A DNA stretch of 64,000 bases, from contig CAWAHW010000002.1 of the NCBI GenBank assembly GCA_963781885.1, positions 1,024,001 through 1,088,000 on the forward strand. The letters run 5' to 3'. The notes beneath the pieces were generated by a model. It was not told where the DNA came from, did no database searches, and was given only the letters and a program-made list of their open reading frames with translations. The DNA is from an uncultured Spirochaetota bacterium (GTDB lineage Bacteria > Spirochaetota > Spirochaetia > SZUA-6 > Fen-1364). Position numbers and translations under genes: made by a program. Positions 37,115 through 54,051 of the stretch are shown here, piece by piece. The number at the start of each line of letters is the position of its first letter. Position 1 is the first letter of the stretch.

Positions 37115-37426
37115 GTTGCACCCCCTGACTCCACGACGTCAGGCGCGCATACCCGCTGTCGTGTTCCCCATGCTTGCACAAGGCGCTCGTTCAGTCCATG
37201 AGGTTGTCGCGGTTCACGAGGGCTAGAGGCGCTGTCGTTGGAGGGCGCGAGAAAGATGGCTGCTCCGCCCTGACGGCCTGGCGCCGTCAGCCATTGCCAA
37301 CGTTTCGAGGGAAGCTAATAGGTCTTGTTGACAATGAGCTCTGGACGGCCTACCGTACCGACTGGTTGCCATCCAAAGCCGAAGCGAAGGCCGCGTCGCG
37401 CGAGGCGTCACGAGGGTACTGCGACC

Positions 37427-39202
37427 ATGAAAAGGTTGTTTGTGCTCGTTCTTTTGTCGCTCTTTGGTCTGCGCCTCTTTGCGCAAAACGAGGACCTTCG
37501 AGGCCTGAAAATCGTCGTGCGTCAACTGGAGGGCGAAACGGCGGTCGCTGGCAGGCAATACGCCGTCCTGATCGCCGTGGACAAGTATCAGACGTGGATG
37601 GCGCTTCGAAACCCGGTCGAAGATGCAAAGGCTATCAAAGACATACTGGTCCGAAAATACTTCATAACCGATTTCATCGAGCTCTATAATCAGGACGCGA
37701 CAAAAGCCGGCATTATCAAGCTCTTCAACAAGCTGATCAACGACATAAAGCCGGAAGATTCCGTCTTGATTTTCTATGCGGGGCACGGGTACCTGGACAA
37801 GAGTTCCAATACTGGGTTTTGGATCCCCGTCGATGGCGGAACAGACATCTACCAGCAAGCGAACTGGCTTCCCAACGCCCAGATCAGAGGCTTCATCAGC
37901 AATATGCTGGCGCGGCATGTTGCGCTCATTGCCGATTCGTGCTTTTCGGGAGACATTCTCAATCCAACGCGCGGTCTCGCTCCAACAATCACGAGCGAGT
38001 ATTTCAAGAATGCATATGCCCGAATCTCTCGGCAGGTGCTCACGTCGGGAGCCTCAGAATCCGTTCCCGACGAGTCCCAATTCACTCGTCAGCTCAAGCT
38101 TGCCCTGGAGGGAAACACTTCTCCTTATCTGGATCCGCTGATGCTCTACAACCAGATACGATTGGGTGTCACGCAAACCACACCGCTGTTCGGTGACCTC
38201 AAGGATTCAGGACATCAGGAAGGGTCAAGCTTCCTCTTGTTTCTCAAAAGCCCAAGCGACCAAGCCGCCCCCACTGAGGGAGCCGCATCCTCCGCGCTGG
38301 GACCAAAGGCAACTTTCAGTTTGGAAAAGGTCTCGGGAAAAGTGAATATAGAGACAAAGACCCCGGGGACTCTTCTGCTCGATGGTGCGGTGCAAGGGCA
38401 GGTTCCCGCGGGGCGCATGGCAACGATTGCGAATCTCGAAGCTGGCAGCCACGAGCTGGAGATGCACTACGATAATGGCAAGACCGAAATGATACGGGTC
38501 ACGATAGATTCCGACGAGCCGCTTTCAATCAGGTTTGGAGACGTATACCCGCAGGCTGCCGCGTTGTCGGGTGCCGGAGCAGGAAGTCAGGCAGGGCTTT
38601 CCGAACCCCCAAAAACCCCTCCGAAGGATTCTTTAGTGGATGGAGATTCACTGCCGGAAGCCTCAATTAGGATCGATGGCACGTTCGATGACTGGGATGG
38701 CGTTCTGCCGGCATTCACCGCCGGTACACGGTCGCCCACGACGAAGCAGTTGGCGATTGAGAAGGTCTATTGCGCGGTCGATGGAAAGAACTTCTACGTT
38801 AGATTCGACATTCAGGACGTCACTCCGAGCTCCTTTTTTCATTCCCACAATTTCTATATGGATAAAAAGAGCTCGTACGGCATCGATTTTGAAAACGGGA
38901 TGAACCATGTCGTGGCCGAAATTAATTTTGACAACAGCCCAAAGGTTAACCGCTGGAATGTCGACATAATCAGGTTGGTTGATGGTCGCTGGGAGGTGAT
39001 CGACAAGACACGTGGAAACTACGCCATGAGAGGTTCGTCACTGGAAGCCTCCTTCCCATTGGAACCAATCAAGAAGAACCTCGGTGATCTTGGCGCGAGT
39101 GGTTTCTTCCAGGTAGGCGCGCGCACTGAGTACTTTGATGATCAATGGAATTTGATTCAAGATGGCGGAGACCATACGACGGTGAAAAAGGTCGCTTTTT
39201 GA
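37427..39202 (+). CDS. Secreted caspase-family (peptidase C14) protein with PEGA-like and C-terminal beta domains
   Basis: Signal peptide; YAVLIA..Y..LRNPVEDA; catalytic YAGHG and ADSCFSG; LTSG..E.V.D. Confidence 0.85.
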   Translation: MKRLFVLVLLSLFGLRLFAQNEDLRGLKIVVRQLEGETAVAGRQYAVLIAVDKYQTWMALRNPVEDAKAIKDILVRKYFITDFIELYNQDATKAGIIKLFNKLINDIKPEDSVLIFYAGHGYLDKSSNTGFWIPVDGGTDIYQQANWLPNAQIRGFISNMLARHVALIADSCFSGDILNPTRGLAPTITSEYFKNAYARISRQVLTSGASESVPDESQFTRQLKLALEGNTSPYLDPLMLYNQIRLGVTQTTPLFGDLKDSGHQEGSSFLLFLKSPSDQAAPTEGAASSALGPKATFSLEKVSGKVNIETKTPGTLLLDGAVQGQVPAGRMATIANLEAGSHELEMHYDNGKTEMIRVTIDSDEPLSIRFGDVYPQAAALSGAGAGSQAGLSEPPKTPPKDSLVDGDSLPEASIRIDGTFDDWDGVLPAFTAGTRSPTTKQLAIEKVYCAVDGKNFYVRFDIQDVTPSSFFHSHNFYMDKKSSYGIDFENGMNHVVAEINFDNSPKVNRWNVDIIRLVDGRWEVIDKTRGNYAMRGSSLEASFPLEPIKKNLGDLGASGFFQVGARTEYFDDQWNLIQDGGDHTTVKKVAF

Positions 39203-39253
39203 GCGAAACCTGCTGATGCTTTTATGTCGTTGAAATCAATAAGGCGATAGATC

Positions 39254-40900
39254 ATGAGGAGAGTCATTCTTATATCGATTTTTGCTTTGTCTTTTTTCAT
39301 TGTGGATCTGACGGCGACTGCGGCCCCCGCATCGACCCATACCGTAACGTACGACGGAAACGGGAATACGGGCGGAAGCGTTCCGACGGACAGCAGCAAC
39401 TACATCCAGGGAGCGACTGCCGCCGTGTTAGGGGATAGTGGCAGCCTTGTGAAACGCAATTTCGCTTTGGCCGGATGGATGACGAAGATTGACGGAACCG
39501 GAACGAGTTATGCGGTGGGAGCTACTTTTAGGATGAGCCCCGAGGCGGTGACCTTGTACGCCCTGTGGGTACCTCTTTCTCTCAAATTCAGTAGTTCAAA
39601 GAAAAGCATCGTGATTACTGGATATGCAGTTGCGCCGAAAGGAGCCCTTACCATTCCAGCCGGTATCACCAGCATCGGGCAGTATGCCTTTCAAAATTGC
39701 AAGGGCTTGGTCAGCGTCATTATGCCCTCGAGCGTCACCAGCATCGGAATGGAGGCATTTTTCGATTGCGCGAGCCTGACAATGGTCACTCTCTCCGCCA
39801 ATGTCACCAGCATCGGGCAGTGTGCCTTCTGGAACTGCACGAGCCTATCCGACGTTACTATCCCCGCCGGCATCACCCGCGTGGCCGACGGCGTTTTCCG
39901 GGGCTGCGCGGGCCTGACCAGCATCACCATCCCTTCAGGCGTCACCACCATTGGCAGCGAGGCCTTTTCCGGCTGCGCGGGCCTGACCAGCGTCATTATC
40001 CCCGGGAGCGTCACAGGTATCGGCGAAGGTGCATTTAGCAAATGCACGATCCTCTCCAGCGTCGCTATCCCTTCCTTCGTCACGAGCATTGGCCGCTTTG
40101 CCTTTGAGGGCTGCACCAACCTGACTCGCGTCACCGTTGATCCAGCAAATGCATACTATGAATCCGACAACTCAGGTGTGTTGTTCACAAAGGGTGGTAC
40201 GACTTTGCTACAAGCTCCTGCAAAAATGAGTGGAGATTACGTCCTGCCGGCAAGCGTCATTCACATCGGCGACTTTGCCTTCCAAGAGTGCGCCAGCCTC
40301 ACCAGCGTCACTATCCCTTCCAGCGTCACGAGCATTGGCGAGAATGCCTTTCCGGGCCTCGCCAGCGTCCTTATACCCGCCAGCGTCACCAGCATCGGCG
40401 ACGGCGCGGTTTCGGGAAGCTTCGTCACTGTTGATCCCGCAAATGCATACTATGAATCCGATAGCTCTGGCGTGCTGTTTACAAAGGACGGTGCGACCCT
40501 AATACAAGTGCCAACCGAAATGAATGGAAGCTATGCCGTTCCCGCGAGCGTTACTGTCATCGATCAGTATGCCTTCGGCGGTTGCACGGGCTTGACCAGC
40601 GTCACAATCCCTGCCAGCGTCACCAGCATCGGCTACGGCAATTTTGCTAACTGCCGAGCCCTCACGAGCGTCACAATCCCTGCCAGCGTCACCAGCATCG
40701 GCGAAGGTGCATTCAATAACTGCACGCGATTGACGAGTGTTATCGTCAAAGCGACCATACCGCCGACACTCCCTTCGGGATCGTACGCATTTCATTTTGA
40801 GGCGAGCGGCTTTGTCATCAGAGTTCCCGCGGGAATTGTCGCTGCGTATAAGGCTGCTGCCGGGTGGAGCGATTACGTCTCAAAAATCGTTTCGCAGTAG
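39254..40900 (+). CDS. BspA/TpLRR leucine-rich repeat surface protein with InlB B-repeat
   Basis: VTYDGNGNTGGSVP..FAGW..TLYALW, followed by many LTSVTIP.SVTSIG..AF..C repeats. Confidence 0.92.
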   Translation: MRRVILISIFALSFFIVDLTATAAPASTHTVTYDGNGNTGGSVPTDSSNYIQGATAAVLGDSGSLVKRNFALAGWMTKIDGTGTSYAVGATFRMSPEAVTLYALWVPLSLKFSSSKKSIVITGYAVAPKGALTIPAGITSIGQYAFQNCKGLVSVIMPSSVTSIGMEAFFDCASLTMVTLSANVTSIGQCAFWNCTSLSDVTIPAGITRVADGVFRGCAGLTSITIPSGVTTIGSEAFSGCAGLTSVIIPGSVTGIGEGAFSKCTILSSVAIPSFVTSIGRFAFEGCTNLTRVTVDPANAYYESDNSGVLFTKGGTTLLQAPAKMSGDYVLPASVIHIGDFAFQECASLTSVTIPSSVTSIGENAFPGLASVLIPASVTSIGDGAVSGSFVTVDPANAYYESDSSGVLFTKDGATLIQVPTEMNGSYAVPASVTVIDQYAFGGCTGLTSVTIPASVTSIGYGNFANCRALTSVTIPASVTSIGEGAFNNCTRLTSVIVKATIPPTLPSGSYAFHFEASGFVIRVPAGIVAAYKAAAGWSDYVSKIVSQ

Positions 40901-40991
40901 GCGAAACGGCGTCAACGCGATCCCGTGAGGCTGCCGGAGACCGTCATACCCGGCGAGCGAGGAACGGCCCGAAATAATCCCAAAATTTGTC

Positions 40992-41021
40992 TTTACAAAC
41001 AATCTAACAATATGTTAAAAT
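40992..41021 (+). promoter_or_regulatory. Promoter with an overlapping palindromic operator for the TetR-fliG unit
   Basis: TTTACA...TGTTAAAAT; TAACA-ATA-TGTTA inverted repeat at 41005-41017. Confidence 0.6.
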
Positions 41022-41051
41022 ATTAGAATCTTAGGTCGGCGGGAGGCTTGC

Positions 41052-41651
41052 ATGGCTTCTCACAGAAGAGACGAAATCCTGGCGGCTGCCGGAAACTGTT
41101 TTGCGAAGTTCGGCTTTGAAAAAACGACCCTCGATGATATTGGTGCGCTGGTCGGCGTGAACAAGGTGTCCTTGTATCATTACTTTAAGAACAAAGAAGC
41201 CATTTTTGTCGAACTGATCACCCGGGAAGCCGATGAGTATGGCCAATCGATTCACCGCAAGGTTGATGCCATCAAGTGCTGCAAGGACAAGATCCTCGCC
41301 TGGATAAAAGAAGGCTTTAGGTACAGCACGACGAACAGCATTCTAAACCAGTTCTCCATCGAATCGCTGGACAAGCTGACTCCTCAACTGGAGGAACTGA
41401 AGGTTTACGGGATGAAGAAAGGGATTGAATACATCGAGACAATCCTGATCGACGGCCAGCAAAAGAACGAGGTCATTGCCTGCGATGCACGCCGGGTTGC
41501 GGAATCAATTCAGAACGTCGTGTATGCGATAAAAGATCAGGCGTATCATCAGGCAAGATCCAATCCCGACAGGAAGATGGATTTTGGCAAACTGGTCGAC
41601 GATGTGGTTTTTGCCGTCTCGCTCATACTTGACGGGATTACTTCAAAATAG
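41052..41651 (+). CDS. TetR/AcrR family regulator
   Basis: GFEKTTLDDIGALVGVNKVSLYHYFKNKEAIF; GGGAGG SD. Confidence 0.92.
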   Translation: MASHRRDEILAAAGNCFAKFGFEKTTLDDIGALVGVNKVSLYHYFKNKEAIFVELITREADEYGQSIHRKVDAIKCCKDKILAWIKEGFRYSTTNSILNQFSIESLDKLTPQLEELKVYGMKKGIEYIETILIDGQQKNEVIACDARRVAESIQNVVYAIKDQAYHQARSNPDRKMDFGKLVDDVVFAVSLILDGITSK

Positions 41652-41663
41652 CCGGGGGACATT

Positions 41664-41816
41664 ATGGCAGAACTGGATTTGGAGTTTGCGCGCCTGCTTG
41701 ACGTGGAGAAAACCCCTCCCGGCAAACTGGCGGAATATGGCGCGGCAGTTGTCATGGCGCGCCTGTGGCCCGGGGACGTCGCCGATCTCCTGAGGATTTG
41801 GATCGAGGAGGAGTAG
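41664..41816 (+). CDS. 50-aa microprotein resembling the FliF C-terminal FliG-binding segment
   Basis: Hand translation MAELDLEFARLLDVEKTPPGKLAEYGAAVVMARLWPGDVADLLRIWIEEE*; GGGGG SD-like; stops 3 nt before the fliG ATG. Confidence 0.7.
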   Translation: MAELDLEFARLLDVEKTPPGKLAEYGAAVVMARLWPGDVADLLRIWIEEE

Positions 41817-41819
41817 CGC

Positions 41820-42923
41820 ATGGCAAAACAGGCAGCAAGGGCCGCCGCCGCCCCGCAGGACAAGGCAGGAGCAGGAGCGACGCCACAGGCAAGGCGCGAA
41901 GGCACGAAAGCCGCAGCGTCCAAGAAAGCGCTCACCGGCAGACAAAAGGCGGCGGTGTTCCTCGTCACCCTCGGTTCCGATATAGCCTCCGAGATCTTCA
42001 AGCATCTGCGCGAGGACGAAATCGAGCAACTGACTTTCGAGGTCGCGCGTCTGGAGAGCATCGCCCCCCAGGAGCGCGATGAGGTGCTCCTTGAGTTTCA
42101 CGAGCTGATGATGGCCCAGGAGTTCATCTCCACGGGCGGAATCGACTACGCGCGCGAGCTTTTGGAAAAGTCCCTGGGAGGACAGAAGGCGGTCGATATC
42201 ATCAACCGCCTGACAAGCTCGCTGCAGGTGCGGCCATTCGATTTCGTTCGACGCACGGACCCGTCGCACCTTCTGAACTTGATCCAGCAGGAGCATCCCC
42301 AGACAATCGCCCTGATCCTGGCGTATCTCGAGCCGCAGAAGGCTTCCGTCATCCTCGGCAGCCTCCCGCACGAGATACAGTCCGACGTCGCGAAGCGCAT
42401 CGCCACGATGGACCAGACCTCTCCCGAGGTGCTCCGCGAGGTGGAGCGCGTACTGGAAAAGAAGCTCTCCAGCATGTCATCGGAGGACTACACCGCGGCG
42501 GGCGGAGTGGAGAACATCGTGGACATTCTCAACATGGTCGACCGATCGACGGAGAAGACCATCGTGGAAGCGCTGGAGGAAGATGATCCCGAGCTTGCGG
42601 AGGAGATCAAGAAGCGCATGTTCGTCTTCGAGGATATCGTGCTCCTGGACGATCGCGCCATCCAGAAGGTCATTCGCGAGGTGGATACCGCGGAGCTCGC
42701 CAAGGCCCTGAAGAGCGTGGACTCCGAGGTGCAGGACAAGATCTACCGCAACATCTCCAAACGCGCCTCCACGCTTCTCAAGGAAGACATGGACTACATG
42801 GGCCCGGTCCGGCTGAAAGACGTGGAAGAGGCGCAGCAGCGCATCGTTGCCGTCATCCGCAAGCTGGAAGAGCAGGGGGAAATCGTCGTGGCGCGCGCCG
42901 GAGAGGAAGAGCTGGTGGTATGA
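41820..42923 (+). CDS. fliG: Flagellar motor switch protein FliG (outside the usual fliF-fliG-fliH operon)
   Basis: LTGRQKAAVFL, GGIDYARELL, EHPQTIALIL, MFVFEDI, GPVRLKDVEEAQ. Confidence 0.96.
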   Translation: MAKQAARAAAAPQDKAGAGATPQARREGTKAAASKKALTGRQKAAVFLVTLGSDIASEIFKHLREDEIEQLTFEVARLESIAPQERDEVLLEFHELMMAQEFISTGGIDYARELLEKSLGGQKAVDIINRLTSSLQVRPFDFVRRTDPSHLLNLIQQEHPQTIALILAYLEPQKASVILGSLPHEIQSDVAKRIATMDQTSPEVLREVERVLEKKLSSMSSEDYTAAGGVENIVDILNMVDRSTEKTIVEALEEDDPELAEEIKKRMFVFEDIVLLDDRAIQKVIREVDTAELAKALKSVDSEVQDKIYRNISKRASTLLKEDMDYMGPVRLKDVEEAQQRIVAVIRKLEEQGEIVVARAGEEELVV

Positions 42924-43441
42924 TGGTCGACTATAGAAAGCTCACCGAGCCATCGGTCCAGGTTGCGGAGGCTCTCACCCGCTGGGAGAACGACCCGGAG
43001 CTTGTTCCATTCACGCGGTATTGCAAGAACCAGGAGGAATGGGAAAGAAAAAAGATCGTCAGCCCCGACGGCCTTGCCGAGCGGATGCGGCGTCAGACGA
43101 TCTACCTCGTCTATCTGGACGACCATTTGATCGGCGAGCTGAGCTATGAAATTGACCCCGCGCTTTTGTACAAGAAGGAAAAAGGAACCGCCTGGATAGG
43201 CATTGTCCTCGGCGAGGAGATCGGGCGCGGCAGGGGAATCGGAGGCGGCGCGATGCAGTACCTGGAGGATCAGATCAGGATCGCCGGCTACAAGAGAATT
43301 GAGCTGGGCGTTTTCGAGTTCAATGCCAGGGCTAGAGCACTGTACCGCAAAGTTGGCTACGTCGAGATCGGCAGGATCCAGGCCTTCACCTGGTGGCAGG
43401 GAAAAATGTGGCAGGACATCCGGATGGAAAAACTCCTGTAA
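42920..43441 (+). CDS. GNAT family N-acetyltransferase (RimJ/RimL-like)
   Basis: GRGRGIG acetyl-CoA motif, LGVFEFNARARALYRKVGY; ATGA overlap with fliG. Confidence 0.88.
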   Translation: MMVDYRKLTEPSVQVAEALTRWENDPELVPFTRYCKNQEEWERKKIVSPDGLAERMRRQTIYLVYLDDHLIGELSYEIDPALLYKKEKGTAWIGIVLGEEIGRGRGIGGGAMQYLEDQIRIAGYKRIELGVFEFNARARALYRKVGYVEIGRIQAFTWWQGKMWQDIRMEKLL

Positions 43442-43477
43442 GCCGCTCTGCCGATGCGCGCGGTCGAGCGTGCATTC

Positions 43478-45058
43478 TCATCCCTCCCCGTTCGCGACGA
43501 AGTTGTTGTAGTAGTATTCCAGCCCGTCGATCAGCGCCTGCCAGGATGCCTCGATGATGTTTTCATCCACCCCGACCGTGTCCCACGTCTGCTCGCCGTC
43601 GGAAGTCGTAATGAAGACGCGGACGCGCGCCGCCGTTGCCCGCTCTGGATCCAACACGCGCACCCGGTAATCGGTGAGCTTCAGCTTTTTCAAAAAGGGG
43701 TGGAGGGGAAGGAGGGCGTCGCGGAGCGCGCCATTGAGCGTATCGACGGGGCCGTCGCCGACGGCCGCGCCCATGAGCAGGTTGCCGTTGGCGCGGACAA
43801 AGAGCCGGCCCACGGTCTTCGCCGGTGTGCCGACCGACTTGTAGTTCTCCAGGTGGTAGTTGCTGAGCTCCAGGAGCGATTTGTACTGGCCGAGGGCGCG
43901 CCGGATCACAAGATCGAATGACGCCTCGGCTGCCTCGTACTCGAAACCCTTTTCCTCCAGCTCCTTGAGCTCGACGAGGAGCCGCGCGACGATTTCCGAT
44001 GACTTCTCGAAGTCGCCATACCGGGCCATCTTTTTCACGATCGTGGATTTGCCGGCGAGCTCGGAAAGCAGGACGCGGCGCTCATTACCCACCAGGGCCC
44101 CGTCCACGTGCTCCATGAGGCGCGGCGCCTTGCTGATCACGTCGGCATGCTGTCCCGCCTTGTGGGAGAAGGCGGCCTCGCCGACGTAGGGCTGGCGCTT
44201 GTCGGGGATGATGTTCGCTTTCTCCGCGACGAAGCGCGAAAGCGCGGTGAGAAGCGCGAGGTTGGCGCAGGCAGCGGCACCGTCATTCATCTTCAGGCAC
44301 AGGGTGGGGATCAGCGTGCAGAGATTCATGTTCCCGCAGCGCTCGCCCCAGCCGTTGATCGTGCCCTGCACGTGCACGGCGCCGTGCGCGATGCCGGCGA
44401 GCGTGTTGGCGATGGCATTGCCGGTGTCGTCGTGGAAGTGCACCCCGAAAGCACCCAGCTCCTTCATCGGCAGCTCGGAGATGATGCGGGCCACCTCCGA
44501 CGGGAGGGTGCCGCCGTTGGTGTCGCAGAGCACGAGGCAATCGGCGCCCGCGTCGCGGGCCGCGCGCAGCGCGGCAAGGGCATACGCGGGGTCATCCTTG
44601 TAGCCGTCGAAAAAATGCTCCAGATCGTAGAAGACCTCGCGCCCCGCCGCCTTCAGGGCGGCGAGTGAATCCGCGATCATGCGGAGATTCTCCTCTTCCG
44701 TCGTCTGGAGCACCTCGCGCACGTGGGCCTTCCAGGTCTTTCCCACCACGATGACGGTGGGGGTTTCCGCCTGCAGGAGCGCCGTGATCTGCGGATCCGT
44801 ATCGGCCTTGCCCATGGGCCTGCGCGTCGAACCGAATGCCACGACCTTCGCGTGGCGAAGGCTCTCCTTGCGCATCCGCTGGAAGAACTCGCTCTCCTTG
44901 CGGTTGGAAAGGGGAAAACCGCCCTCGATGTAGTCGATGCCCAACTCGTCCATGGCCAGCGCGATCTGGACCTTGTCCTCCAGCGTATAGCTGATGCCCT
45001 GGCCCTGCATGCCGTCCCGTAACGTCGTGTCATAGATGACCGTGCGCCGGCCGCTCAT
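43478..45058 (-). CDS. cimA: Citramalate synthase
   Basis: YDTTLRDGMQG, IEGGFP.SN, AFGSTRR, VGKTW, EHFFDG, HKAG.H. Confidence 0.88.
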   Translation of the reverse strand: MSGRRTVIYDTTLRDGMQGQGISYTLEDKVQIALAMDELGIDYIEGGFPLSNRKESEFFQRMRKESLRHAKVVAFGSTRRPMGKADTDPQITALLQAETPTVIVVGKTWKAHVREVLQTTEEENLRMIADSLAALKAAGREVFYDLEHFFDGYKDDPAYALAALRAARDAGADCLVLCDTNGGTLPSEVARIISELPMKELGAFGVHFHDDTGNAIANTLAGIAHGAVHVQGTINGWGERCGNMNLCTLIPTLCLKMNDGAAACANLALLTALSRFVAEKANIIPDKRQPYVGEAAFSHKAGQHADVISKAPRLMEHVDGALVGNERRVLLSELAGKSTIVKKMARYGDFEKSSEIVARLLVELKELEEKGFEYEAAEASFDLVIRRALGQYKSLLELSNYHLENYKSVGTPAKTVGRLFVRANGNLLMGAAVGDGPVDTLNGALRDALLPLHPFLKKLKLTDYRVRVLDPERATAARVRVFITTSDGEQTWDTVGVDENIIEASWQALIDGLEYYYNNFVANGEG

Positions 45059-50639: not shown

Positions 50640-52327
50640 GTTTTCCCTCTCTCACGGACGGCGCCGCGCGATGCCGGCCCGACGCTTGCCGCATATGCGT
50701 CGAGGAATGCGCTGCCGGTCGATGCGACCCGGGGCACGAATGCGGCAGTCCTGCGCTCCCATTCGTCTTTCTCTATCAGGAGGTCCAGCCGCTTGCCCGG
50801 GATATCGATCCGTATCCTGTCCCCTTCCCGTACGATACCGATGGGGCCGCCCATCGCGGCCTCGGGGGTCACGTGGCCGATGGATGCCCCGCGGCTTGCT
50901 CCCGAGAAGCGTCCGTCGGTGATCAGCGCAACCTCCCGGTCCAGCCCGATACCCGCGATCGCGGAGGTGGGCGCAAGCATCTCCCGCATGCCCGGGCCGC
51001 CGCGGGGCCCCTCGTAGCGGATGACAATCACGTCGCCCGGCCTGATCTTTTTGCCGATTATGGCGGCCTGCGCGTCCTCCTCACCGTCAAACACGCGCGC
51101 GGGCCCCTCGTGCACGAGCATCGCCGCGTCGACCGCCGCCTTCTTCACGACGCAGCCCTCCGGGGCGAGGTTGCCTTTCAGCACTGCAAGGCCGCCTTCC
51201 GCGTGGTAAGGCCGGTCGGGCAAGGCGATGTAGGTGCCGTCGGCCGCCGGGGCGCCGCGGTATGATTTCTCCAGGGACGATCCCGTGACGGTGAGCGTGC
51301 TGCCGTCAATGCACTTCATTCCGGCCAGCGCCTTCAGCACCGCCATGACGCCTCCCGCGGAATGAAGGTGCTGCATGAAATGGGGCCCCGATGGGGCAAG
51401 CGAGCAGAGATGGGGGACCTTTGCGCTCAGCAGGTCGAAATCATCCAGCGTGAGCTCCACGCCTGCTGAGGTCGCGATGGCAGGGAGGTGGAGCGCGGAG
51501 TTCGTCGATCCGCCGAGCGCCATGTCCAGCGCCACGGCGTTCAGGAATGCGGCGCGCGTCATGACCGAGCGGGGGGTGATGCCCTCCTTCACGGCACGCA
51601 CGGCGGCGCGCCCCGCCTCGCGCGCGAGGATCTGGCGGTCCGCATAGACGGCCGGGATCGTGCCGTTTCCTGGAAGGGCAATCCCCAGCGCTTCCGACAG
51701 GCAGTTCATGGTGTTTGCGGTGAAAAGCCCCGCACAGGAACCCGTGCCGGGGCAGGCGGAGCATTCCAGTCTCTTCAGGTCTTCATCCGACATGGCCCCC
51801 GCGCCGTGCTTCCCCACTGCCTCGAAGACCGTCTCCAGGCCCACGGCGCGGCCGTCGAAGCTTCCCGCGAGCATGGGCCCGCCCGAGACGATGACGGCAG
51901 GGACGTCCAGGCGCGCGGCAGCCATGAGCATGCCCGGCACGATCTTGTCGCAATTGACCACGAGCACGAGGCCGTCCAGCGCGTGCGCCTGGGCCACGAT
52001 CTCCACCGAATCGGCAATCAGGTCACGGCTGGGAAGCGAATACTTCATCCCGACGTGGCCCATCGCGATTCCGTCGCACACGCCGATGGTGCCGAACTCC
52101 GCCGCGATCCCGCCCTCCGCCCAGATGCCTTCGCGCACGCTGTCGGCAAGACGGCGCAGCTCCCGATGTCCCGGGATGAGCTCGCTGTACGAGTTGGCGA
52201 TGCCGATGACGGGACGGCCCATATCGCCGTCTTCCCACCCCAGGGCGTGGAAAAGGCTCCTGTGCGGTGCGCGCTCCGCGCCCTCCTGCACGGCCGCGCT
52301 GCGACGTTTCGTTGTCCACGTGCTCAT
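50636..52327 (-). CDS. ilvD: Dihydroxy-acid dehydratase
   Basis: [46 protein letters not shown]; GGAGG SD. Confidence 0.96.
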
Positions 52328-52350
52328 GAAGCCTCCTTTGCTCACGGAGC

Positions 52351-52387
52351 AAAAAAAAGGGCCGCTCTCCCGGAAGGAGAACGGCCC
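52351..52387 (-). terminator. Attenuator terminator upstream of ilvD
   Basis: GGGCCGTTCTCC-TTCCG-GGAGAGCGGCCC-TTTTTTTT on the minus strand. Confidence 0.88.
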
Positions 52388-52414
52388 GCGCTGAACGTCG
52401 TCATCGACCGCGCG

Positions 52415-52504
52415 CTACCCTCCCGGGCGTCTCTGGCTCCTCTCAAGGAGGACGCGAATAAGGATGAGCCCGGAAATGGAAAGAGACCGGCAGGCGCTTT
52501 TCAT
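52415..52504 (-). CDS. ilv/leu operon leader peptide
   Basis: MKSACRSLSISGLILIRVLLERSQRRPGG*, with an LILIRVLL run, between a TTGACA promoter and the terminator. Confidence 0.75.
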   Translation of the reverse strand: MKSACRSLSISGLILIRVLLERSQRRPGG

Positions 52505-52563
52505 GTCACGGTATATATATGCGGCCTTTGGATATTTGTCAAGGGAGAAAACGCACGCCGAAT

Positions 52564-54051
52564 CTAGAATGTGGCCGCGCGCCGCTCGAATGATTTCTGC
52601 AGTCGGTCCAGGATTGCGCGCGCCTGCTCCTCGTCCTGGATGCGGAAATCGCTCAGCACGGGCCTTTCGATCTGCTCGAAGTTGATCAGGTCGCGCTCGA
52701 TACCGGTGTAGGCGTTGGCGAGATAGACGCAGAATACGACGTCCTTGTACTGGAGCGGACTGGACAGCGGGTCGTGGTGGAACTTGATGCCGTGCACGAG
52801 CTGCTCGGGGAAGTTCCACTTCTTGGCGATGAGCGCGCCGATGTCGGCGTGATTGAGGCCGAAGGAGAAGCGCTCCAGGATGCGCGGCGGGATGTCCTTC
52901 TCCTTGCAGAACCGGGCCATCTGCTCCATCGCATTGGGATGGAGATAGCTCACGATGATCTGGCCCAGGTCGTGCAGGATGCCCGCGACGTAGACGTCGT
53001 CCAGGATGTCGGCCTTCGGCTTGAGGCTGCGCGCCAGAAGATAGGCGTAGTAGGCGACGCGGTTGGAGTGCTCCCAGAGCGTCTTCATCTCCGCGTACTT
53101 CTCCCCGAGTATCTTCTGCGCGCCGTAGGAATAGAGCAGGTTGCGCAGGCCCTTCATGCCGACGATTTTCACGCCCTGGAGGATGTTGTTCACCCGGCGG
53201 GGCAGCACGTAGTGCGCCGAGTTCACGAGCTTCAGGAGGTCCGCCGTCAGCGTGGGGTCCGTGGCAATGCGGCCCGCCATCTGGGCGATGGTCGCCCGGG
53301 GGTCCTCCGTGAGGTGGATGAGCTCGACGATCGTCTCGGGGAAATGCGGCAGGGAATCGACGTCGCGGACGATGGCCTCCGTGAGCACGCTGATCTTTTC
53401 CAGCTGCACCTGACTCATGGGGATGCTGAGAGTCGCCACGGTCTCTCCGTCGTGCGGCTCGATGGAGAATGCCTCCTCCCCGAGCCCCAGGCGGCGGAGG
53501 AACTGCAGGAGGATGAGGATGCCCAGCCCCGCGCCCTCCGTTGAATCGATGGGCTGCGCAAGGGCCTCCACGAAGGAATGGAACGCACGGGCGCGCGTGA
53601 TGCGGTCGTAGATGCGCGTCTGCTCCCGCGGGGTGAGCTCCGCGCTGTTGCGCACGGATATCTCGAGGCTCCCGCGCGTCGTATGGAACGTGACGCCGAT
53701 GTACTGGCTGCGCTCCTTCAGCAGGTCGAGCCAGTGCTCCAGACGTTCGGCGGATTGCACGCGGAAATCCTTCATGCCCGCGTCGTAGTCGCCGTCGTTG
53801 AGGATGTCCAGACCCTTCTCCTCGAAATAGAGCCGCTTCATGTTCGCCTTCTGCGCGTTCACGATCAGCTCCTTCAGGCAGTAGGAGAGCGGCTCGAGGA
53901 TGCGCTCCTGGCCGAGCTCGGCAAGGTAGGCTTCCAGGATCCTGTCCAGCAGGGCATGTGATTCATGCGGAAGGCTTGTCAGGCGGAAGGTGAGGGGAAT
54001 CGAGCGCAGGGCTGCCTTCTGAATTTCAGAGATGTCGATTGTTGTAGCCAT
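52564..54051 (-). CDS. GHKL-like ATPase domain plus HDOD domain protein
   Basis: ELIVNAQKAN and EGAGLG in the N-terminal half; LPHFP, DPTLTADLLKLVNS, ILHDLG, KKWNFP..HH. Confidence 0.85.
   Translation of the reverse strand: MATTIDISEIQKAALRSIPLTFRLTSLPHESHALLDRILEAYLAELGQERILEPLSYCLKELIVNAQKANMKRLYFEEKGLDILNDGDYDAGMKDFRVQSAERLEHWLDLLKERSQYIGVTFHTTRGSLEISVRNSAELTPREQTRIYDRITRARAFHSFVEALAQPIDSTEGAGLGILILLQFLRRLGLGEEAFSIEPHDGETVATLSIPMSQVQLEKISVLTEAIVRDVDSLPHFPETIVELIHLTEDPRATIAQMAGRIATDPTLTADLLKLVNSAHYVLPRRVNNILQGVKIVGMKGLRNLLYSYGAQKILGEKYAEMKTLWEHSNRVAYYAYLLARSLKPKADILDDVYVAGILHDLGQIIVSYLHPNAMEQMARFCKEKDIPPRILERFSFGLNHADIGALIAKKWNFPEQLVHGIKFHHDPLSSPLQYKDVVFCVYLANAYTGIERDLINFEQIERPVLSDFRIQDEEQARAILDRLQKSFERRAATF

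Follow-up and report, generated by a model that had tools for sequence, protein, structure and literature searches.

Why would a bacterium encode the tail of FliF by itself, as a 50-codon open reading frame placed directly ahead of an extra copy of fliG? The joint between the FliF tail and the N-terminal domain of FliG (FliG_N) anchors the switch ring on the membrane ring in every bacterial flagellar motor, and the two partners are thought to fold only together. The window analysed here, the whole 64,000-nt stretch of DNA from an uncultured Spirochaetota bacterium, contains such an arrangement, consisting of the following features:

40992..41021, + strand: candidate sigma-70-like promoter (TTTACA, 18 nt, TAAAAT, with TG before the second hexamer), 30 nt 5' of tetR
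41052..41651, + strand: gene for a TetR-family regulator of 199 aa (PF00440, 55 bits; cut-off 24)
41664..41816, + strand: mini-ORF (fliF'), 50 codons, with GGGGGA 4 nt 5' of its ATG
41742..41813, + strand: last 24 codons of the mini-ORF, derived from the FliF tail (DNA homology from 41753), with the putative FliG_N-binding helix
41806..41812, + strand: GGAGGAG, Shine-Dalgarno sequence of the extra fliG, within the last mini-ORF codons
41820..42923, + strand: extra (orphan) fliG, 367 aa, three domains, paralogue of the canonical FliG2-type gene
42920..43441, + strand: GNAT acetyltransferase gene (PF00583, 52 bits), with a 4-nt overlap with the fliG stop (ATGA)

Starting at the ATG at 41664 and ending with the TAG at 41814-41816, the mini-ORF would specify a 50-aa product whose C-terminus is VMARLWPGDVADLLRIWIEEE, and its stop is separated from the fliG start at 41820 by a 3-nt spacer. 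These coordinates agree with the preliminary description of the window, which had also reported that no fliF precedes the mini-ORF and no fliH follows fliG. Indeed, the upstream position is held by the TetR-family gene, whose product has the N-terminal helix-turn-helix domain (PF00440), and the gene 3' of the extra fliG is not fliH since it encodes a GNAT acetyltransferase (PF00583). Given the gaps of 12 nt (tetR/mini-ORF) and 3 nt (mini-ORF/fliG), the 4-nt overlap of fliG with GNAT, a promoter-like site and the failure to find a convincing + strand terminator within the string, the four genes are packed tightly and look like a single operon. The site at 40992..41021 matches the consensus at 10 of 12 positions, in a region with 2 promoter-like sites vs. 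0.8 expected from shuffles, and is a candidate promoter for the entire tetR-mini-fliG-GNAT string. The TAG stop of tetR is in frame with the mini-ORF, 4 codons ahead of its ATG, and the G+C content of tetR (0.48) is below that of the fliG module. No orthologue of tetR was found in 20 genomes of the genus, the best match having 43% identity over 81 aa. Nothing resembling the inverted repeat of an operator was seen close to the tetR promoter; the only inverted repeat, at 40888-40908, was rejected as an operator, being instead a terminator-like hairpin after the gene upstream. A search of 40800-43600 against Rfam gave nothing above threshold and a single match to a snoRNA model (E 0.92).

The origin of the locus is apparent from the bacterium's own flagellar genes. 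Blastn aligned positions 41753-42923 of the window with the 3' end of fliF and the adjoining fliG on contig C5 (51507-52701) at 83.6% identity over 1198 columns, and the alignment crosses the 3-nt spacer and takes in the final 61 coding bases of the mini-ORF. Because the homology runs at the DNA level through the spacer into the mini-ORF, resemblance of the latter to fliF is not due to chance. By this alignment the locus is shown to be an old copy of the fliF 3' end together with fliG, i.e., a paralogue module. Elsewhere, the genome has one full-length fliF (566 aa), directly 5' of the canonical fliG on C5, one fliM, and a third, FliG1-like fliG (C2:553768-554733; 32% identity). Since there is only one fliF and one fliM, any motor role of the extra FliG would use canonical partners. 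The layout of the Shine-Dalgarno sequence at the extra fliG matches that of the canonical fliF-fliG junction, where 15 of the 18 other genomes measured have 3 nt between stop and start and the remaining ones 2-4 nt. In a nucleotide tree, the orphan fliG was placed inside the genus, beside a clade made up of the canonical genes of this genome (G000) and of its sister species, G005 (nearby nodes, 46-65%).

Surveys of 21 genomes from the genus and 92 from the order each turned up the extra fliG once. Outside these, a metagenome protein of 368 aa (P0035), encoded on a 29,030-bp JGI contig and not found among the 92 genomes, groups with the orphan FliG with 99% bootstrap support and has 9 derived residues in common with it. 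In addition, a relic of the last 94 nt of the orphan fliG sits before the GNAT orthologue, a syntenic anchor, in both G005 and metagenome contig L156. This relic is 90% identical to the orphan 3' end vs. 77-82% to canonical genes, and it is all that is left of the module in G005. Judged from these relatives, the extra fliG is a member of a small paralogue lineage. FliG_MC-like matches were also seen within frames of 525-710 aa in three genomes of the genus.

The preliminary description had named a misassembly near 41660 as something that would overturn its reading, and a fragment of another strain's fliF-fliG could in principle have been joined chimerically into an unrelated tetR/GNAT locus during assembly or binning. 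The genome is metagenome-assembled (its relatives are MAGs), G+C rises from ~0.48 to 0.61 near 41650, and among the Logan contigs listed (three runs of one study) none lies over 41525-41684, the tetR/mini-ORF junction. The other two junctions are corroborated, however. A 194-nt contig from run X1, whose matches are short identical pieces, covers 41685-41878 with one letter different and bridges the junction of the mini-ORF and fliG (the matches from X2 and X3 are mostly relatives' fliG at 85-95% likeness), and the fliG/GNAT junction was found independently in G005 and L156, where the relic has orphan-specific bases. Moreover, the locus is on a 1.56-Mb contig, and the orphan fliG differs by 16% from each canonical gene and has a sister, P0035, with the 9 derived residues in common, so that it cannot be taken for a strain variant of the canonical gene. 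We therefore regard an artefact of this kind as extremely improbable.

The preliminary description had called the extra fliG an orphan of full length. [quoted passage not shown] Compared with the canonical copy, dN/dS is 0.082 at a dS of 0.72. We considered and rejected a FliG1-type paralogue, as the extra FliG is nearer the fliF-linked, FliG2-type protein of its own genome (90% aa identity) than the FliG1-like one (32%). Although 18 of its 24 orphan-specific residues affect sites that do not vary among 17 canonical genes, the replacements are mostly conservative (I/V, E/D, M/L); likewise, the 16 changes at canonical-invariant positions in the core are mostly conservative and the 6 in the N-domain are all so, while the segments QQEHPQTIALIL and MFVFEDI are the same as in the canonical copy. 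By these sequence measures, the extra FliG is shown to be a complete, conservatively altered rotor protein under purifying selection. Leaving aside any role of the peptide, we consider a duplication origin combined with a functional extra FliG to be very probable.

The mini-ORF itself is a different matter. Its last 24 residues (AAVVMARLWPGDVADLLRIWIEEE) are identical to the canonical tail (NAANMAREHPEDVAQLIRTWLVEE) at 12 positions and changed at the other 12, and they retain the core P-x-D-V-A-x-L-L-R-x-W-I of canonical FliF tails. Together with the DNA homology, this upholds the earlier identification of a FliF C-terminal tail free of ring or membrane parts: the product has neither the ring-building domains (PF01514, PF08345) nor the two transmembrane segments, which a protein of 50 aa could not hold, and by sequence it counts as a FliF fragment rather than as a FliF. 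It matched no Pfam family at E<=1 and no PDB entry at E<=10. Alignment to the genome's own FliF gave a match in the last 24 codons, while residues 1-26 had no significant FliF similarity (418 of 500 and 658 of 2000 shuffles scored equally high). Before the hinge proline, only M-A-R of the first-helix region is kept, and residues 1-26 contain a TPPG that should break the first helix of a FliF tail. Three relatives have a TetR-like ORF that resembles residues 2-25 (E 0.3-0.4); this was attributed to chance, the window's own TetR being without similarity. The earlier proposal that only the FliG-binding peptide had been kept, with its own start, is one way to read the locus; the piece came along with the duplication, residues 27-50 alone are demonstrably derived from FliF, and residues 1-26 cannot be aligned.

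Such a sequence could simply be a decaying relic of the fliF'-fliG duplication with no peptide function, open by chance or as a leader or translational-coupling ORF that helps fliG translation, in which case the extra FliG would work without the peptide and might bind ordinary FliF tails in the motor. Several properties of the mini-ORF point in this direction. In the sole 24 alignable codons, dS is 0.65 and dN 0.42, and the dN/dS of 0.64, with differences falling about equally on the three codon positions (8/8/9 by a hand count of the codon table), compares with 0.08 in the adjacent fliG; by comparison, the canonical FliF tail is invariant at the positions equivalent to M31-E50 in 18 of 19 other genomes, with dN/dS essentially 0. 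The mini-ORF has diverged much further than any tail in a set of 80 canonical spirochaete sequences (with LW in place of EH, D of Q, I of T and E of V), its N-terminal half is unalignable to FliF, its GC3 has fallen to 0.725 from the 0.92 of the canonical fliF end, the 3-nt stop-start spacing is simply inherited, and G005 has dispensed with the module. Neutral copies of the last 24 codons remained open in 64-68% of simulated trials, and we estimate the chance of a 50-codon open frame at such a G+C content, from composition alone, at roughly 20%. The extra fliG, with a strong Shine-Dalgarno sequence of its own, does not need an upstream ORF. On the other side, the frame and the position of the stop relative to fliG are intact at a dS of ~0.65, and synonymous changes have occurred in the motif codons for V (GTC vs. 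GTG) and R (AGG vs. CGG). A pure leader ORF, moreover, would not constrain amino acids.

The arrangement of a mini-fliF followed by fliG did not recur in relatives: none of 92 genomes of the order yielded another mini-ORF, and the sister species G005 has destroyed the module. The 50-aa protein, whose ORF the preliminary description had noted as missing from the ORF track, is present in identical form in the NCBI, ENA and Logan protein sets, where it stands as a singleton, and searches for orthologues among 5.8 billion clustered proteins (lengths 27-88 aa) returned only itself, while 506 pattern matches in genome contigs and 598 in metagenome contigs yielded 0 confirmed cases each. HMMER against 1.84 billion representatives found no orthologue, only the mini-peptide itself and two repeat-like matches (E 6e-5 and 1e-4), which were set aside as long proteins (666 and 1048 aa) matching in 7 and 4 stretches. 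The protein collection did include 31 short canonical-like FliF tails of 27-88 aa. Among the 18 that were read, all those reaching the C-terminus are canonical and several start at a conserved internal Met, and one (P0028) ends before the terminal acidic residues; these were rejected as relatives of the mini-ORF and look like broken or edge-cut fliF calls. A short frame of 47 aa in another genome (G015:C3) was also rejected, there being no fliG close by, and for two weak short-frame matches (G002:C47, G046:C79) the FliG matches of those genomes sit on other contigs. That the mini-ORF is a singleton in every search adds to the case for a relic.

One argument for a retained peptide comes from where the substitutions have fallen. 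We compared the mini-ORF at 9 core positions (P, D, V/I, A, L/I, I/V, R, W, L/F) common to the canonical spirochaete tail and the solved tails 12dr_A and 5tdy_A, and found 9 of 9 kept, 7 as identical residues and 2 as I/L swaps. Neutral simulations at the observed number of substitutions conserved all 9 positions in 0.02% of open frames (25 substitutions) or, starting from a null-friendly ancestor, in 0.09% (23 substitutions), values that are to be read with the fact that the positions were picked after the sequence had been seen, from three reference tails only. At least 7 identical motif positions arose in 0.7-2.4% of simulations and at least 11 untouched codons in 1.1%, and the total aa identity of the tail is only marginally above neutral expectation (p 0.025-0.11). 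Avoidance of the FliG-contact positions far beyond that of random change (0.02-0.1% of simulations) speaks against simple decay, and survival of the motif is suggestive of continuing selection on the peptide.

When the peptide and residues 36-145 of the extra FliG were modelled as a complex, the median score was 0.58 (runs 0.58, 0.56 and 0.66) vs. a best of 0.01 for the controls (n=3), with a partner pLDDT of at least 61 and contact agreement between runs of at least 67%; when the tool was calibrated, 58 of 80 solved complexes and 2 of 110 mismatched pairs attained the mark, with scores of 0.60 or less in only 7 of the 80 solved complexes and in both passing mismatches. The prediction thus passes its controls, weakly supporting binding of the peptide to FliG_N and weighing to that extent against a mere relic, although the pass may reflect likeness only, because a similar complex has been solved (5TDY). 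FliG_N of the extra copy is almost unchanged while the peptide has diverged. If binding were of the canonical type, the peptide would therefore be expected to show roughly the conservation seen in canonical tails, and the near identity of the extra FliG_N to the canonical one, by which the extra FliG could dock on the real MS ring, again favors a relic. All considered, a mini-ORF that is merely decaying is a serious possibility, if somewhat short of an even chance.

Because the N-domains of the extra and canonical FliG differ at only 6 conservative positions, a binder of one should bind the other. The peptide might then act in trans on canonical FliG, competing with the FliF tails of the MS ring and blocking assembly of new C-rings when the operon is switched on via TetR control, with the extra FliG being incidental or a buffer for the peptide. 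Its position behind a repressor gene suggests such conditional expression. Yet strong selection on the extra fliG, which persists in P0035, would be unexplained if that gene were incidental, and the high dN/dS and singleton status of the mini-ORF count here as well. We consider an action on canonical FliG very improbable.

Comparison with known systems places the locus close to the canonical joint. The C-terminal 24 residues of the mini-ORF product have homologues in the FliF tails that bind FliG_N in Thermotoga maritima (PDB 5TDY) and in M-ring chain 12dr_A, with which they have in common the core P-x-D-[VI]-A-x-[LI]-[IVL]-R-x-W-[LFI], and, as in canonical fliF-fliG, FliG_N is encoded directly downstream at a 3-nt spacing. 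Unlike a FliF tail in a motor, however, this tail would be a separate 50-aa product without a transmembrane or ring part, and its first-helix region has been replaced or interrupted. Several fliG genes per genome are normal in spirochaetes, with one copy away from fliF. In Borrelia burgdorferi, FliG2 is essential for flagellar synthesis while FliG1 is not and localises asymmetrically (PMC7225975). A FliG1-like gene (32% identity) is present here too, but, unlike either member of the B. burgdorferi pair, the extra fliG makes a third copy; it is a recent duplicate of FliG2 type, not FliG1 type (90% aa identity), and it alone carries a FliF-tail ORF. According to PMC6079021, FliG_N alters its conformation to co-fold with the FliF C-tail, the signal of FliF-FliG coevolution sits in the last twenty tail residues, and engineered FliF-FliG fusions and co-expressed constructs made for structural work have the tail and FliG_N as one folded unit. 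The locus resembles those laboratory constructs but is natural, with the tail split off from the ring. No description of a separately encoded FliF C-tail was found in the open-access literature and preprints searched.

If the peptide is functional, it would be translated directly ahead of the extra FliG, would bind the N-domain of the latter one-to-one, and would there occupy the site that otherwise docks onto the MS ring. The outcome would be a soluble, capped FliG, produced only upon release of the TetR-type repressor, which might serve as a stabilised reserve subunit or act as a decoy that binds FliM, stator units or further partners of FliG. The preliminary description had pictured such a complex as a motor brake or clutch, a FliM/MotA decoy or a chaperoned spare FliG, roles that are all hypothetical. 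Whether the peptide is a functional FliG_N cap or a relic is about evenly balanced, and the full statement, in which a duplicated module with a functional extra FliG also encodes a peptide that caps it, falls just under an even chance. A more far-reaching proposal, that the free FliF-tail peptide and its dedicated third FliG form a natural soluble mimic of the MS-ring/C-ring joint, made on a chemical cue via the TetR-type repressor and tuning motility by titrating FliM/FliN, stator units and other FliG-binding regulators off motors, or by exchange into motors, is unlikely on the present evidence. Since it comes from one genome of an uncultured organism, the locus is for now a lead, not a result.

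Even conservatively, this locus illustrates the birth of a flagellar paralogue by a duplication whose boundary falls inside fliF. On that reading, a useful gene is under selection in one lineage and has been destroyed in the sister, and the fragment that accompanies it decays except at the residues that touch FliG. A natural locus with the tail alone beside a spare FliG would serve to ask how much of the tail binding needs, whether the FliG so bound stays soluble and assembly-incompetent, and whether cells regulate motors by means of capped rotor subunits. If the peptide does act as proposed, it would be the first example of a FliF tail that is encoded separately and acts in trans, and would represent a new type of motor regulator.

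We confirmed that a 50-codon frame (hereafter the mini-ORF) lies 3 nt before a complete fliG, with a TetR-family gene on its upstream side, as the preliminary description had stated; by Pfam, the gene downstream encodes a GNAT acetyltransferase.

Features of the extra fliG locus
41052-41651, + strand: TetR-family regulator, upstream neighbour
41664-41816, + strand: mini-ORF of 50 codons, ATG at 41664, TAG ending 41816; product C-terminus ...VMARLWPGDVADLLRIWIEEE
41820-42923, + strand: extra fliG, 367 aa, all three FliG Pfam domains far above cut-offs
42920-43441, + strand: GNAT acetyltransferase, downstream neighbour, 4-nt overlap with the fliG stop

The mini-ORF had been thought to be missed by annotation; it is present among gene calls, and the identical protein occurs as a singleton across the NCBI, ENA and Logan sets. 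The genome spans 4.64 Mb in 7 contigs, and its relatives are MAGs of uncultured Spirochaetota or Spirochaetaceae. On contig C5 it has its only full-length fliF, coding for 566 aa, and 3 nt after the end of that gene begins the canonical fliG, coding for 375 aa; the genome also carries a single fliM and a FliG1-like gene at 32% identity. A blastn comparison aligned window positions 41753-42923 with C5 positions 51507-52701 at 83.6% identity, and the alignment starts within the mini-ORF, spans the 3-nt spacer and ends precisely at the fliG stop codon. Since the match has this extent, the locus represents a copied fliF end plus fliG; judged by sequence, the feature is genuine and its derivation clear.

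Compared with its canonical sister, the extra fliG showed a dS of 0.72 and a dN of 0.059 (dN/dS 0.082), and dN/dS against 17 other canonical genes was 0.056-0.083. Eighteen of its 24 specific residues fall at sites invariant in 17 canonical sequences, and nearly all changes are conservative. GC3 is 0.80 for the extra gene vs. 0.90 for the canonical one, and canonical FliG cores within the genus and family share 98-99.7% mutual identity. In a nucleotide tree, the extra gene was placed beside the clade formed by its genome's canonical gene and that of a sister species, G005; its branch is 3-5 times as long as those of the canonical genes, and support at nearby nodes is only 46-65%. A second complete FliG at ~90% identity was found in none of the 20 other genus genomes and nowhere else among 92 genomes of the order. 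By canonical fliG, no relative is closer than G005 (dS 0.39; 69% complete), and both G005 and a metagenome contig (L156) carry a GNAT orthologue (77% identity) preceded by just the last 94 nt of fliG, with homology to the window from 42829 onward at ~83%. This relic has no start codon, is identical in the two records, overlaps the end of a PAS-histidine-kinase ORF, and is 90% identical to the 3' end of the extra fliG vs. 77-82% to canonical genes. A metagenome protein of 368 aa on a 29-kb contig (P0035) clusters with the extra FliG at 99% bootstrap and has nine derived residues in common with it (E82A, T121G/A, I143V, F154L, R199Q, S232N, M312I, I330V and I345V). Together, the relic and P0035 place the duplication before the split between the window's species and G005; the copy is still whole in at least two organisms and has been destroyed in one. 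These comparisons establish the extra fliG, at the sequence level, as a duplication-born and functional third FliG under purifying selection. The mini-ORF itself is known from one genome only, that of an uncultured organism, and we regard an assembly artefact as very improbable. The kinase-like ORF (at least 621 aa; L156:2-1867 and G005:C12, record L074) ends within the relic in another frame, and the best matches to its product in the window's genome lie elsewhere, on contig C2 at 85.4-86.9 kb (62% identity).

The four genes are tightly packed: tetR ends 12 nt before the mini-ORF, which stops 3 nt before fliG, and fliG overlaps the GNAT gene by 4 nt. A promoter-like site with 10 of 12 consensus matches lies directly upstream of tetR, and no convincing + strand terminator was found within the string; the simplest reading would be one TetR-controlled operon. 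The extra fliG has its own Shine-Dalgarno sequence, GGAGGAG, within the final codons of the mini-ORF, the same layout as in the canonical pair. G+C is 0.47-0.57 in tetR and the preceding 4 kb, 0.61 in the fliG module and 0.63 in the genome. Since no orthologue of tetR exists elsewhere in the genus and a different gene abuts the relic in G005, the module's left flank has undergone at least one rebuilding, which may be the source of the FliF fragment's present length and start. The low-G+C stretch spans 37400-41650 (flanks 0.62-0.68), holds two long ORFs along with tetR, and could represent an island, variable or gained by horizontal transfer, that abuts the module.

ORFs within the low-G+C stretch
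37325-39202: 625-aa ORF
39254-40900: 548-aa ORF, repeat-rich

tetR and the mini-ORF (41052-41816) lie in one frame, with nothing but the tetR stop (TAG) and four codons between them, a coincidence to be expected in one case out of three; read-through would yield a TetR protein bearing a FliF tail. In three genus genomes, a TetR-family gene also follows the FliG1-like gene at a distance of ~1.5 kb and in the same orientation (G006:C14:59137-61959; G016:C16:48611-51325; G007:C15:378395-381428).

The main rival explanation is that the mini-ORF is a relic, or a mere leader ORF, next to a working spare FliG, which we consider a serious prospect at somewhat below even probability. Its product matched no Pfam family and no PDB chain at E<=10. 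Alignment with the full-length FliF, proposed earlier as a check, held for residues 27-50 (12 of 24 identical) but not for residues 1-26, for which 418 of 500 shuffles scored as high against whole FliF and 658 of 2000 against the collinear segment. For the 24 homologous mini-ORF codons, dS was 0.65, dN 0.42 and dN/dS 0.64, and the 25 nucleotide differences were spread 8/8/9 over the three codon positions. Several replacements (LW for EH, D for Q, I for T, E for V) lie beyond canonical tail variation. Protein collections, genome and metagenome contigs and the order's genomes yielded no relative of the peptide.

The last 20 residues of canonical FliF were identical in 18 of 19 other genus and family genomes despite many synonymous changes, the exception being one R-to-K change, and were almost unchanged in 23 order-level loci (23 parsed of 27 tried) and in 80 spirochaete loci from genome contigs. 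A long FliF frame precedes fliG in 79 of these 80. In the other (L093:1-1450, a Spirochaetaceae MAG), an otherwise ordinary fliF has an in-frame stop directly after ...INMAR that cuts off the last 16 codons (HPEDVAQLVRTWLQEE), although these still stand immediately 5' of fliG; the stop may stem from a sequencing error, or it may truly truncate the FliG-binding helix. With its last ~20 residues (MAREHPEDVAQLIRTWL.EE) near-invariant order-wide, little changed across 80 species and free at synonymous sites, the spirochaete FliF-tail/FliG interface is, by these alignments, unusually hard-frozen. The protein collection also holds 31 short canonical FliF C-tails (27-88 aa; P0002-P0032), nine of exactly 54 aa. 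The inspected members of these nine begin at the conserved internal Met of ...QAMREAAL..., and two of the 31 (P0023, P0027) have unrelated N-terminal stretches. These are probably broken or edge-cut fliF calls.

The canonical spirochaete tail shares nine cross-phylum positions (P, D, V/I, A, L/I, I/V, R, W, L/F) with the M-ring chains 12dr_A and 5tdy_A (the Thermotoga tail), and the mini-ORF is identical at seven and has I/L swaps at two, although this motif was defined post hoc from just three references. We simulated neutral decay of the ancestral 72 nt with the observed number of substitutions and a spectrum taken from synonymous sites of the fliG pair, assuming uniform site rates in one lineage. 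With the present canonical sequence as ancestor (25 substitutions), all nine positions stayed conserved or conservative in 0.02% of open frames and at least seven stayed identical in 0.7-1.3% (total identity P = 0.025-0.11); with a null-friendly ancestor and pseudocounts (23 substitutions), the values were 0.09% and 2.4%, with at least 11 untouched codons in 1.1% (total identity P = 0.06). Substitutions are therefore concentrated away from the FliG contact, a pattern expected under selection on the contact face alone. The mini-ORF is a FliF-tail fragment, and the evidence for continued selection on its FliG-binding face is suggestive but thin. Prediction of the proposed complex, using the peptide without an alignment and residues 36-145 of the extra FliG with a 15-row alignment, gave a median score of 0.58 (runs 0.58, 0.56 and 0.66; best of three controls 0.01), with partner pLDDT of at least 61 and at least 67% of contacts common between runs. 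This lends binding weak support: in the tool's calibration, 58 of 80 solved complexes passed, as did 2 of 110 mismatched pairs, and just 7 of the 80 lay at <=0.60, along with both passing mismatches. Since the structure of a like complex, 5TDY, is already solved, the pass may reflect likeness alone.

Two fliG genes are known in spirochaetes; in Borrelia burgdorferi, FliG2 is required for flagellar synthesis and FliG1 localizes asymmetrically (PMC7225975). The extra gene here does not belong to the FliG1 type but is a recent copy of the one linked to fliF. Lacking both ring and membrane domains, the 50-aa product is not itself a FliF, but it qualifies as a FliF C-tail segment; a search of open-access literature and preprints turned up no paper on a FliF tail encoded by a gene of its own. 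Three genus genomes also contain matches to the middle and C-terminal domains of FliG (47-58% identity to residues ~132-364) within frames of 525-710 aa, which are fusions of FliG_MC to something larger.

FliG_MC-like matches
G018:C4:275727-276419
G004:C199:3511-4191
G019:C20:19242-19931
G018:C10:292320-293003

Published work describes FliG_N as refolding around the FliF tail, whose last twenty residues carry the coevolution signal (PMC6079021), and the rings as matched one-to-one (PMC8956890). From its sequence, a FliF tail helix stands in an open frame ahead of the third FliG. A peptide acting in trans as an assembly inhibitor seems quite unlikely. We tentatively favor, at only slightly less than an even chance, a peptide that is translated and caps its neighbor: it would bind the N-domain of the adjoining extra FliG, and a FliG thus pre-filled by a free tail would be unable to dock onto the MS ring, leaving a soluble FliG with its middle and C-terminal domains free.
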